A stretch of 64,000 nucleotides of DNA from Hydrolagus colliei. Taxonomy: Eukaryota. The translations under genes and the position numbers were made by a program. The notes below the pieces were generated by a model. The model saw only the letters and a program-made list of their open reading frames with translations. It did not search any database and was not told the DNA's origin. Location of the stretch: assembly GCA_035084275.1 (NCBI GenBank), contig CM068765.1, positions 3,596,001-3,660,000 of the forward strand. Direction: 5' to 3'. Positions 17,101 through 57,900 of this stretch are shown here, one piece after another (the stretch's first letter is position 1; each line of letters begins with the position of its first letter).

Positions 17101-20100
17101 CTTTTTATTCTCAAGGCACGACTTGAAGAACTCCATCAGCTATGGGAGCGTCTATTGGCGAAAATGAGGGAGAAGGGGATCAGACTGCTGCAAACGCAGA
17201 AACTTGTGCAATACCAGCGCGAATGTGATGATGCTATGGATTGGATCAATGATAAGGTCAGTTTTAGCTCATGGTTTGTCCCTGTGGGGAGAATTCTGTT
17301 AGATTCTGGCTGGTGGTATTAAATGAATGGGATGGGACACAACACACACCGTTCTTCTTCCTTTGGGGTGCTATGCAGAGACCCTCCAGACACTAGAAGT
17401 GGTGCAGATGTGATCAAGATTTCTGGTGATAGGGATAAACTATGAGAAATAACTAGAAATTAAGACACTTTAACTTAGAAGAGACTTAACCGAGGAGAGC
17501 TTCTGGAGGTTTTTAGAAGCTTAATGTAGTAAAGTTTGCCTAGAACAAAATACCAAGACCGCAAAACGAACGGACACAGGACCAAGATTGGGAAAAATGT
17601 TAAGACCTGTACTTTGCACACAGCATAAGCTAACAGCTGGAACATGTTCTCAGCAAAGTTGGTTGAGACCAGAACACGTTTTATTGAAGCTGGAGTTGCT
17701 GATTCCTTAATGTATTGGAACTGTCAGTTGTACTAAATGAATGTTTATGACTATATATTTAGGAAGCTATTGTAACATTGGAGGAGCTTGGCCAGGACTT
17801 GGAGCATGTTGAAGTTTTGCAGAAGAAATTTGAGGAATTCCAAACTGATCTTGCAGCTCATGAGGAACGTGTGAATGAAGTGAATCAGCTGGCGGGAAAA
17901 CTTGCCCAGGTAAGATTTTTAATTTTCTTATGAGTTTTGTGGTTTATCGGTGAGAGCACTCGCCTTGCGAGCAACAGGACCTGGGTTTGATTGGGCACCC
18001 ACAAAATCTATCCAGTTCACAGCGTATTCTGTGAAGCGCTTTATCAAATATAAGGATCATTGTTACTCCCAGTTCCCATGGAACATTTCTCGGGAAGGAA
18101 TTGATGCATTCAGGGAAAAGGAAATGGGAGAAACTAAGAAATCGGACAGTTTAGTTTTAACATCTTACACTGATGTGAAAATCACCACTTCATTTAATCA
18201 GATTAATGTTTCCCTTTTTGTTCACAGGAGGAGCACCCTGAGTTGGTGCTTATTACCCATCGACAGGATGAGGTGAACGCTGCCTGGCAACGACTCAAAG
18301 GCCTTGCACTGCAGCGACAGGGCAAACTCTTTGGGGCAGCAGAAGTTCAGCGCTTCAATAGGTGGGTAACTTAAATGAGATGTTTGTGGTCGAAAGAGCT
18401 TGAATGAATGCCTTGAAGGAGATTTTAAAAAAGTGTAGATTTTAGACGTTGCTGTCATTCACCTCAGAGCCATCGATAATTGGTCCCTTTCCCATCCATT
18501 GGGAGCGGCAATGGAGTGGGTTATGGAACTTCGGTTAACCTCGCATGTTGCTTCACTTGGACAAATAACCGGCCCTGTTGTATCCATCTTAACCGTCCTC
18601 CACTGTGTAGTCCTCCAAAAGTCACTTTTACTACTGAATCTTTGGTACATGATACAGTTGTTTGTACTGTTCCATTGTTTGCAGCTGTTGTACTCCTGAA
18701 GTGAAGTATGTAAAAACGGGTATGAATGAAGGTTCTGTTAGAAGAGAGGGAAAATCTATGGAGGCACTAAATTGACAAGTGTACCCATGCTCCACTGGCT
18801 GGTAGACATTCACCAGTAACGTTGCTGGGAATGGGGTGTCTCTAATAGAGAATGGTGCAAGAGAAAACTAAAATGAGTTGTAAGTGCTATATAGCAGTAT
18901 TTCTATATTAATTGGAAGTTCTGCTTTGTAGAGATGTGGATGAAACCATCAGTTGGATTAAGGAGAAGGAGCAGTTGATGGCGTCGGATGATTTTGGACG
19001 TGACCTGGCTAGTGTGCAGACACTCCTGCGCAAACACGAAGGCCTAGAGAGAGACCTTGCTGCTTTGGAGGATAAGGTAAGATGCTGTATCAAATGTAAG
19101 TCTTATTATTCATTCTACATATTCTATTGTTTATAATACTGAGCAGCAGATCTAACTTTTGAGAAATAATTGAAACCTGCAACAGCCGATTGCAGCCAAG
19201 CTAACCTACGTTGTATTCTGTACTTTTAATTGAATGTCGGCTACATCAGCAATGATTCTTTACTTTTTTGTTGCTTTGTCTCTAGGTGAAAGCACTGTGT
19301 ACTGAGGAGGACCGTCTTCAACAGTCACACCCACAGAGTGCTGCCCAGATTCAGGTCAAACGAGAAGAACTCATCCAAAATTGGGAGCGAATCCGCACTC
19401 TGGCAGCTCAAAGACATACACGCCTTGATGACTCCTACAGGTGAGGTCGGGATTCCCGCCAACCATCTGGTCACGTGAAGACCTGTTGCGCAGGAGTAAA
19501 CGGAGCTTGGATGAACTAGTGTACGACTTGCGTATTTATGTATATTTGTTTTCAGGCTTACGTTGGGTTGAAGCTTGGGTCTATTTTATTGAAAGACAAC
19601 TAACCATAAATGGGGTTCAGTGCACAGTCATGTTCCTCTGGAACTGCAGGAGTAGCAATAATTTGGGCTGACAAAATCCGTTTGTACTTTTATCTGACTG
19701 AATTCTATTCATATGGATTCACAATAGAGATTTTAATATTGGAAAGTTTAATGTGCAAGAATTAATGATCACAATATCTTAAAAAATTTGTAACGAGAGG
19801 AAATCAGAACACAATTAGTTATTTTTATTTGTTTCCCAGACTGCAGCGTTTTCTGGCTGATTTCCGTGACTTGACCAGCTGGGTGACAGAGATGAAGGCT
19901 CTTATCAATGCTGACGAACTGGCAAATGATGTGGCTGGAGCTGAGGCGTTGCTTGACAGACACCAGGAGCACAAGGTGATCCTGAGCTCTTGATATCATT
20001 CTGCATGTCCATATGCTGGGGGAGGGGGTTGGGGGGCACGCTGACTGAGGGTTTGAAGATCCTCAAGTGCACAAGGCCCAGAGTTGGTAATTCCCAACAT

Positions 20101-54900: not shown

Positions 54901-57900
54901 TTAGCTTCACATTTCGTGGCAACTCCTGGACAATCAGAGCGTACCCGTCCTGCAGTGTGAGCCTGCCTTTCCCATCCATCTGCCAGATCAGAATCTTCCC
55001 ATCGGTGCTGGCACTCAGGACACGCACCCGACTGTTGTAGCCTGAGCCTGGAATCCATCGCACCTGTAAACGCACAAATAATAATCCTTGCATTTGATAT
55101 AGCGCTTTTCACATCGTATCGACGTCTCAAGGCGCTTCACAGAAAATACTGTAAAGTGGATTGACTGTATATTTGTGGGCGAAATGTGGCAGCCAATTGT
55201 GCACAGCAGCGTCCCACAAACACAATAATAAATTTTGTGGATTGAAATGACCGATTATTATTGTGTTTTTTTTGGACAGATTATTACTAGGCGTGTGGCA
55301 GAAGGAAACTTGCCCACGGTTTCGCCCTGATCTGCCTGGCTTCAAACACAGGTCTCACCTTGTTAGGCGAGCGCTCTAACCACTGAGCTGCAGCTCCTTT
55401 GTCAGCGCTTTGTTCAAGACTTCAGTTTTTTTTCAATTTAAAAATAAATTGTTCCTATTTTTAATCCATCTTCATCTCTTCAAAGCAGTGAATGGTGTTT
55501 GGGCTTTGCTCTACAAGCAGCAGGATTCTCTGCTATCACACCAAGGTGACTTTTCATCAAACACTGCCTGGATAGTGACACGTTACTCCACTTTGAGAGT
55601 CAAGAATTTCCCGACTCCCATCTGTCCCACCAGGTGTTCATTAGATACTGATCGGATACTCTCGAGCCTTCGGCTACTCTTAAGCAACGGTGGTGGCTTT
55701 CCACACGGGTCAAGACAACACCCGACCAAACAAACGAATAATATTAAACAAAAACAAAAGTTGTTGGGGGAAATTCAGCAGGTCAGGCAGCATCCATGGA
55801 GAAAGGAAAAAGAGTCAACGTTTCGAGTCCACAACCCTTCGTCAGAACTGGGGCTTGCTTGGAGGGAGAGGTTTCTTAAGGACGTTAAAGGGGGAGAGGC
55901 AGGACACGGAAGACAAAAGAGACAAAGAAGTCAGAGGAAAAGGAAAAAAGTGTGTTAACAAATAATATTGACAAGAAGCAGGAACGCCGCCTGAGTTTTC
56001 CCAGCTCAGAAATTCCGAGGCCAATTACAGCCCCAACATTGCCTGCTGCAGCCGAGGTAGGTTAGGACCACACATGTACTTAAATCATTCCTGGTATGGC
56101 CAACGTAAAAAAAAAATCTTATGGACAAAGAGATTAAGGGATGTGGGGATAAAGCAGATAGGTGGAGTTAGATTAGAAGAACAACCTTCTTATTGAATGG
56201 CGTGGCAGGCTCGAGGAGCCCAGTGGCCTACTCCTGCTCCTAATTCTTATGTTAAGAGGTGAGGTGCAACCCTTCATGCCACAACAACTACTTGCATTTA
56301 TATCGTGGCATTGACTCCCAATACAAAGTGAGGTTGGTGCCTGTGGACCCAGCAGCTACACCTCAAATCTTTTCCTTTCAGAGTATCTGCACCCACTCAG
56401 CAGATCATTACAAACATCTTCAGAAACACCATCAATTTACTAAAGGTCAGTCACACCTGCTGAGCTGAAACTGCTGCCGAAAGCATGGCATTCAAAGGCT
56501 AATCTGTAAATAATAATGGTCTTTGGTTCCACTCAGGGTGTCATTAAGTCAGGAGGACTGATAATAATTACATCATGTGAAGACTGGTTTCAGCAAAGGC
56601 CTGTTTAGGCAGTCAGTGGTGTTCACTGTTGGAGAGTGTTGATTGGATTGGCAGATTGCCAGTGATATAGGATTCCTCTGCTCATAAAATGGCCATTTTT
56701 TACAGAAGGGAAACTTGCTCCTTCTGTGTAAATTCACTTCTAATTTGTTTCAAAACGTTTGGGGTGGGGTGGGGGTGAAGGGGGGGAAGTCAGATTGAAC
56801 TTTGAGGTTGGTTTCCTGTGGTTATAAAACATTACAGCAGAGAAGGAAGCCATGCTTAAGAGAATTTACAGAAAATTGGCTTGAAAATTAAGACTGTACG
56901 GTATTTAACAACTTGCCAAATTCTGGATGCTATGAAATGCTACACAAATAGCATAAATCCAGTCCCGGTGGAATTTCTCCCCATCAATTATTGCAACAGA
57001 GAGTAAATAGTCTCTCAGGCACACAGATTAGGTTCAGCCTAACCAGTTGATCCTAGCCAGTGAGTTTGCGTTAGCCTCATGTATCCTCGGCTAGGGAGGT
57101 TTGGGGTCAGCCAGTGTCATTCTGAAACTCATGCTCAGGAGGATTCAAAGCTGACATGCTTCGAAATGTCCTTGTCTGAATGGGATTGTGACATTTCTCC
57201 CCCTCCCTCTCTCTCCTTTGGAGGGACACACTCTGCTTAACCAATCCCAGGAAATATTACACACAAATGGCTGGTCAGGCGGCGTCAACTGGCGAAAGGA
57301 AAGTGAGTCAATGTTTTGGGGCCGACGACTCTTTGTCAGAACTCAAGTGTTTAAGATTTCCAGCATCTGCAATATTTTTGCGTTTTTTCCCCCCCAAGAA
57401 ATGTATGTTGTACATTTGCAAGAGCCAAGGCTTGAGGAACCCAGAGTATGTGTTAGCTAAGGGTCTGATGGAGTTTAACTCAATAAACTGTGCAGCTTGC
57501 CATTATGAACACTGTCTGGCAAGCTCCCCGCTGCTTGTCTAATTACACCACTGATTAGAGTTTTGGCCCCCAGAGTTAATGGGAGCCACGTGGGAAGAAT
57601 CCCTCCAGCGGGAGGGGGGTGTGGAAAACAATGTGAATTAAAAGTGTGCATTTGGTGATCAGATAGACATTCACAATCCCCTGATACCACTCAAAAAGAT
57701 GTTTCTTCGGGTTTCCTAACCTGAAATTGGTCAGTAACTTAACTTCACGCCGTTTGTGTGGACCTGGCTGTGTACATAATGTCTGCTGAATTTGTCTACA
57801 AACACACAGTCACTGTACATGCTAACAATTGCTAAACCTGTGACATTTTGAGATTATAGATATTGTATCAATCGTTAGCTTGCAAACAGGATCAGGTCTG

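Follow-up and report, generated by a model that had tools for sequence, protein, structure and literature searches.

Retroposon tails beside exons in Hydrolagus colliei: no general excess at splice sites, and a duplicated SPTAN1 acceptor with a candidate poison site

Analysis of a 64,000-nt stretch of the Hydrolagus colliei genome (the window; positions 3,596,001 to 3,660,000 of contig CM068765.1 in the 1.0-Gb assembly GCA_035084275.1) reveals retroposon ends clustered at exon edges of SPTAN1, the alpha-II spectrin gene, and of a neighboring WDR34-like gene, with no excess of such ends at splice sites outside the window. The bias that remains there, with tails of short and long interspersed nuclear elements (SINEs and LINEs) near exons and 5′ ends missing before acceptors, is probably the result of selection after untargeted insertion. 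An initial annotation of the window had proposed that SINE and L2-type LINE ends repeatedly coincide with splice junctions and that the family could be remodeling splice sites. Splice-seeking retroposons, if real, would be a directed force rewriting splice signals, and the data presented here argue against them. What is left is a modest extension of known exclusion-zone biology, in which T-rich sense tails can sit inside the branch and pyrimidine region: an instance of known behavior with one testable candidate poison acceptor.

The proposal was evaluated out of sample at 923 predicted exon edges from two sets, one covering 1.2 Mb of five small chromosomes in regions chosen blind to repeats, and the other covering 0.4 Mb around myosin genes. 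For both, exons were called with a small self-trained finder. Score rules retained 195 of the 487 exons called in the first set (these are predictions, at least one of which looks false); among the 356 chain exons of the myosin set, similarity between paralogues confirmed 285, and the other 71 were dropped. The null model re-placed each element at random within its own intron. Element ends of any kind fell within 15 nt of an edge 15 times, compared with 21.4 expected (10 versus 9.6 in the first set and 5 versus 11.8 in the myosins), and the general claim of an excess at splice sites therefore fails. With short introns controlled, a point on which the initial annotation had made its own proposal depend, no excess remained; AT content lay outside that control. 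The coincidence of retroposon ends with splice junctions thus describes an excess within the window that is absent at the 923 edges elsewhere.

Separating the two kinds of element end revealed opposite departures from the null. Tails lay within 30 nt of an edge 27 times versus 17.8 expected (p = 0.02), and 5′ ends 8 times versus 20.5 expected (p = 0.001), with antisense 5′ ends before acceptors particularly scarce (1 versus 7.8 expected). Because profile matches trim 5′ ends, whereas tails had been extended, the 5′ ends were then lengthened by 10 nt, after which the total within 15 nt stood at the null (20 versus 22.0) and the acceptor-side shortage persisted (3 versus 8.0 within 30 nt, p = 0.03). 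It is only at acceptors that the scarcity of 5′ ends holds up. The rise in tails extends to 120 nt and is broad, without a spike, and in introns shorter than 1 kb no tail bin reached p < 0.05. Intronic elements in these sets were also more often sense than antisense (336 versus 237 element-acceptor pairs), the opposite of the usual orientation bias of mammalian LINEs. The idea that copies near exons are older relics was considered and found unsupported (0.67 bits per base for 28 near-exon copies versus 0.66 for 383 others, p = 0.72).

These patterns suggest that retroposon tails are likely tolerated beside exons and not aimed at them. An insertion within 30 nt of an acceptor would separate that acceptor from its branch point. 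A sense tail lying before an acceptor would be T-rich, would hold no AG within its own repeats and would offer branch-like TNA words, and because of these properties it could substitute for the signals at the end of the intron, replacing the displaced branch point and pyrimidine tract. The head of an antisense SINE carries a CAG 7 nt from its end; this CAG would compete with the acceptor, and such insertions would be removed by selection. Rarely, an insertion may hit the splice site itself and survive as the duplicated target recreates the site, apparently at 33165, probably at 35473 and possibly at 42576. Mammalian elements near exons are likewise filtered by orientation, and antisense SINEs are scarce just upstream of exons, for which the authors invoke selection (Zhang et al. 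2011, PMC3088655; Lev-Maor et al. 2008, PMC2533698). The logic published for Alu and other elements is the same as that proposed here; however, the mammalian SINE zone spans ~100-150 bp, whereas here any shortage is confined to ~30 nt and to 5′ ends, with tails reaching the splice site, and mammalian tails are poly(A), whereas those described here are (TTA)n or (TTG)n and T-rich in the sense orientation.

Several observations weigh against selection after untargeted insertion. The donor-side shortage of 5′ ends disappeared once these were lengthened by 10 nt (5 versus 6.5 within 15 nt), and full-length SINEs taken alone were too few to reveal any bias. Tails exceeded the null ~1.5-fold over 0-120 nt (106 versus 70.7), more than tolerance alone predicts, although missed exons deflate the null and may account for part of this rise. 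Antisense tails within 7 nt of donors numbered 6 versus 1.9 expected (post hoc p = 0.012); most of these were LINE tails, and one of the two sets contributed the majority. Finally, the window itself exceeds the null (p = 0.003-0.007). Automatic element calls placed 6 ends within 15 nt of exon edges versus 1.7 expected (p = 0.007), tails alone gave 5 versus 0.8 (p = 0.001), and adding short fragments gave 7 versus 1.9 (p = 0.003), while a hand list gave 8 of 24 versus 2.1 on an uncorrected WDR34 model with one false exon and one wrong acceptor. Compared directly, 6 of 128 edges in the window had an end nearby versus 15 of 923 elsewhere (Fisher p = 0.033). The p-values for the window are optimistic because it was picked by eye for its apparent enrichment, and we infer that its cluster is mostly a high draw singled out by the earlier reader.

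The nine junctions on which that reader relied are indeed exon edges of SPTAN1 or WDR34, each with repeat-like sequence adjoining, and the four strings in which a tail was said to run into TAC are present as quoted. Eight of the nine adjoining exons match Pfam Spectrin or SH3; WDR34 exon 54896-55063 has no Pfam family match. The cases fall into three geometries and are not of one kind. In five, a 3′ tail faces the exon: a SINE 3′ fragment whose tail abuts donor 25967 (25969-26028, minus strand), a full-length tRNA-derived SINE whose tail runs into acceptor 35473 (35163-35473, plus strand; 268 bits by hidden Markov model), a LINE 3′ end with a (TTG)n tail 4 nt from acceptor 40042 (39869-40038, plus strand; its family is linked to reverse transcriptase open reading frames), a SINE 3′ half whose tail abuts donor 40991 (40994-41175, minus strand), and a near full-length SINE with its tail 12 nt from WDR34 acceptor 55064 (55076-55396, minus strand). 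In three, a 5′-truncated end faces the exon. These are a weak 35-nt SINE 3′ fragment at donor 19077 (19079-19114, plus strand; E = 0.012, and 14 bits under a short model for which decoys yielded 0 matches), a LINE 3′ fragment following donor 42576 (42580-42636, plus strand) and a SINE fragment 12 nt from acceptor 24577 (24506-24565, minus strand). The remaining case, 33165, is a TTA-rich insert without an element body. Each of the nine sits at one end of an intron that also contains other sequence, and none is an introner in the sense of a new intron by itself.

The acceptor at 33165 is notable among these cases. An 11-nt word that covers the acceptor plus six bases of the exon start is present in two copies on the plus strand, 36 nt apart (33125-33135 and 33161-33171), and between the copies lies a 25-nt TTA-rich insert (33136-33160) which, to judge from composition only, is likely a tail-only SINE insertion. 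The AG of the first copy ends at 33129 and is likely the ancestral acceptor, preceded by a long pyrimidine tract, with a branch-like CCTAAT at -24; the AG of the second ends at 33165 and keeps the frame open, with a branch-like TTAAT inside the insert at -22 (33141-33145). The scores of the two acceptors, 8.6 and 4.4, lie above and below the SPTAN1 median of 6.25. Splicing to 33129 would lengthen the exon by 36 nt and, read on in frame from the exon before, introduce a premature stop (EHYY*), so that the full-length protein requires the downstream AG. The exon that follows (33166-33363) matches brain spectrin, PDB 3fb2, from its first residue and over 66 of 66 residues. The simplest history appears to be that a lone tail inserted just inside the exon, a few bases from its start, and that the target duplication supplied the new acceptor, and 33129 is on its sequence a candidate poison acceptor linked to nonsense-mediated decay. 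The locus provides a compact natural test of acceptor choice between a strong upstream AG that would add a stop and a weaker downstream AG.

Canine merle offers a close parallel. A SINE in PMEL has inserted where intron meets exon, and its 15-bp target duplication contains the acceptor; this leaves two competing acceptors, with the tail serving as a splicing signal (PMC7349775, PMC6091007). The likeness to 33165 lies in a boundary insertion with an acceptor-containing duplication; the merle insertion, however, is recent, antisense and full-length, with a poly(T) tract and an in-frame extension, whereas the 33165 insert is sense and tail only, and its candidate rival acceptor would add a stop. 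Introners also co-opt a splice site from the target duplication (review, PMC11282704), and at 33165 the duplicated target would likewise supply the acceptor AG, leaving the coding sequence unchanged. Introners, however, are new introns inside exons, mostly DNA transposons and present in large numbers, whereas here an existing intron was lengthened, once in 525 acceptors.

An alternative history for 33165 alone, which we consider possible but unlikely, is that repair or slippage made the duplication and filled it with AT-rich sequence, or that the extra sequence is a rare allele or an error of the assembly. Repair or assembly error has to be entertained because the 11-nt repeat exceeds the 3-5 nt reported as typical of L2 targets (PMC4245944). 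The 36 nt of extra sequence holds no element body, and repeats of at least 6 nt are rare around full-length SINEs (12 of 167 versus 4 in shuffled pairs). Furthermore, an upstream acceptor that is both stronger and stop-bearing would be odd in a fixed allele of a gene that we presume to be essential. However, the insert lies in the direction of a SINE tail and its TTA period continues into the second repeat, a repeat of ~20 nt (5533-5552) borders one full-length SINE elsewhere in the window, so that long repeats do occur, and the locus is single-copy, with no second copy of 33040-33260 in the assembly. The structure is a single case in 1.66 Mb and the only TTA-filled duplicated acceptor among the 525 acceptors examined. 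A wider class of duplicated splice sites was sought at the 461 out-of-sample acceptors and not found; repeats of at least 8 nt spanned 6 of these acceptors versus 14 of 332 control AGs, and in no case did the insert consist of TTA alone. A TACAG-tail-TACAG pattern has 17 matches genome-wide, including that of the window, which among the matches checked is the only one with a repeat longer than 7-8 nt leading into an exon (8 of the 16 others were examined, and 0 of 8 scored as an exon).

A second acceptor may have been rebuilt by a full-length SINE. At 35473, a pyrimidine tract ending in TAG stands just before the SINE head, possibly the old acceptor with a 3-nt repeat, and the upstream site scores 4.3 compared with 0.3 for the one used in the model. 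The SINE seems to have displaced an older acceptor that was left before its head, although a 3-nt repeat is indistinguishable from chance. At 42576, a 6-nt word starting at the donor reappears after the LINE tail (42635) and may reflect a short target duplication. Rescue of individual splice sites by tails is likely, and in this respect the suggestion that the tail itself can restore splicing signals finds support at some sites, apparently at 33165 and probably at 35473, where tail and duplicated target would act together; the targeting of such sites was not supported.

Weak targeting was evaluated as an improbable alternative. A nick after donor GTA(A) would leave a primer able to pair with the UUA or UUG of the tail RNA, such that antisense insertions would favor donors and the T-rich tracts of acceptors would favor sense insertions. 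In its favor, a tail lies within 3 nt of two donors in the window and three out of sample, antisense tails of LINE family B1 lie less than 15 nt from donors 4 times versus 1.0 expected, and the 1.5-fold excess of tails within 120 nt points in the same direction. However, the donor signal came from the random regions (6 versus 1.9) and was absent in the myosins (1 versus 1.6), and no motif was enriched after 797, 342 and 109 tails of three families, save the antisense donor motif in the smallest (16 versus 9). After the 797 SINE tails, TACAG occurred 15 times in the first 14 nt versus 11 times at 44-58 nt, and the antisense donor motif 79 versus 81 times. At exact junctions, 2 of the 109 whole TTA units led into CAG, compared with a background of 3.7%, and NTA was the common continuation. 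With no motif enriched after tails, a preferred target resembling TTACAG or antisense GTAA, as had been put forward, is therefore not supported. Genome-wide, near and far counts of the donor motif (34 and 78) showed no excess over those of a control motif (69 and 137) in a low-power test, and by eye ~20 of the 78 far matches were the SINE's own head. Donor-motif loci scored as exon ends in 3 of 29 scorable near cases and 1 of 28 far cases, and exact copies of AG/GTAAATAATAATCC number only 8 genome-wide, 0 of which score as exon ends. Among the first 30 of 424 copies with a tail followed by CAG, all on the largest contig, none scored like an exon start; their coding scores never exceeded 6.9, whereas 49 of the 58 SPTAN1 exons, the training set, reached at least 8.1. 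A weak preference for donors may exist.

Two further readings are given little credence. In the first, the excess would be real at this locus and not general, since SPTAN1 is long, compact and probably highly transcribed, and its edges might be more exposed through linker DNA or R-loops. The higher proportion of edges with an end nearby in the window was reached despite fewer intronic elements (25 in 39.9 kb versus 759 in 527.7 kb), but the window was chosen because it looked enriched. The second, equally doubtful, is bolder: LINE and SINE tails would be drawn to real junctions because they prime at donor GTA(A) or at the T-rich tracts of acceptors, tail and duplicated target would routinely rebuild the site, and 33129 would be a working poison switch on SPTAN1. 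Were this so, ~3% of acceptors (the 15 of 461 out of sample with a tail within 30 nt) would run on branch and pyrimidine signals made by retroposons. No title about retroposon ends at chimaera splice sites came up in a literature search that was judged by titles and had most subscription papers outside its coverage.

The elements themselves belong to two families. Family A is a tRNA-derived SINE of ~315 nt whose head derives from a tRNA and whose tail is (TTA)n; its 317-position model has 994 matches in 1.26 Mb by profile search, and its 27-nt 3′ motif has 30,803 exact matches genome-wide. Rfam tRNA matches were found in the heads at 35166-35237 (45.7 bits) and 37084-37156 (34.6 bits), and the copy at 33705 has no Rfam tRNA match. 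Flanking repeats of at least 5 nt surround 29 of 167 full-length SINEs versus 18 in shuffled pairs, with shorter ones indistinguishable from chance. Family B comprises the 3′ ends of LINEs with a (TTG)n tail, and all three LINE open reading frames submitted match RVT_1, ending 42, 59 and 214 nt from (TTG)n tails. From C-terminal protein motifs, we tentatively take this LINE to belong to the L2 and not the CR1 clade. The ZfL2 LINEs of the L2 clade and their partner SINEs have a short-repeat tail, a similar SINE 3′ end, frequent 5′ truncation and short or absent target duplications (PMC4245944). The elements described here resemble them in that the LINE encodes a reverse transcriptase and ends in a short repeat, the SINE is similar to it at the 3′ end, and copies are often truncated at the 5′ end.

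The coding region of SPTAN1 (14122-51337, plus strand; Pfam Spectrin and SH3) was modeled as 58 exons, including short, probably alternative ones, with a 2501-aa open frame in which every acceptor is AG and every donor GT. Seven short in-frame exons of 15-63 nt (27177-27236, 28551-28589, 28888-28923, 30426-30473, 36084-36098, 46132-46149 and 46777-46839) are probably alternative, and one open frame accommodates them all. The gene on the opposite strand (51990-63747, minus strand), whose name, WDR34, we carry over as an assumption from the initial annotation, has 8 modeled coding exons and a 507-aa open frame after correction; a first model contained a false exon (54719-54801) and one wrong acceptor and was replaced. 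The corrected model requires a GC donor (52925-52926, minus strand) after exon 52927-53084. The two genes lie tail to tail, and because their ends are only ~650 nt apart (51337-51990), their 3′ untranslated regions may overlap.

Additional observations concern elements elsewhere in the window and in the out-of-sample regions. A weak LINE-tail-like fragment (54857-54879, minus strand; E = 0.013) lies 16 nt past WDR34 donor 54895; it is absent from the junctions listed in the initial annotation and was not recovered by later models. In out-of-sample stretch L035 (1480-1525, minus strand), a SINE tail 19 nt past the donor of a collagen-like exon creates a second donor-like site, AG/GTAAAT, and in right-flank stretch L092 (~4606-5092, minus strand) a predicted acceptor of an unconfirmed exon has a 10-nt word repeated 36 nt upstream across a pyrimidine-rich spacer. 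Four elements are stacked head to tail at 5160-5873, where the last full-length SINE (~5553-5853) stands behind the tail of another element and its flanking repeat is far longer than the family norm. Elements resembling miniature inverted-repeat transposable elements (MITEs), with terminal inverted repeats, occupy 24964-25340 and 48403-48612, and in 6 or 7 of the 30 loci with a tail and CAG the SINE tail is followed by the same MITE-like end, suggesting insertion into the TA of tails.

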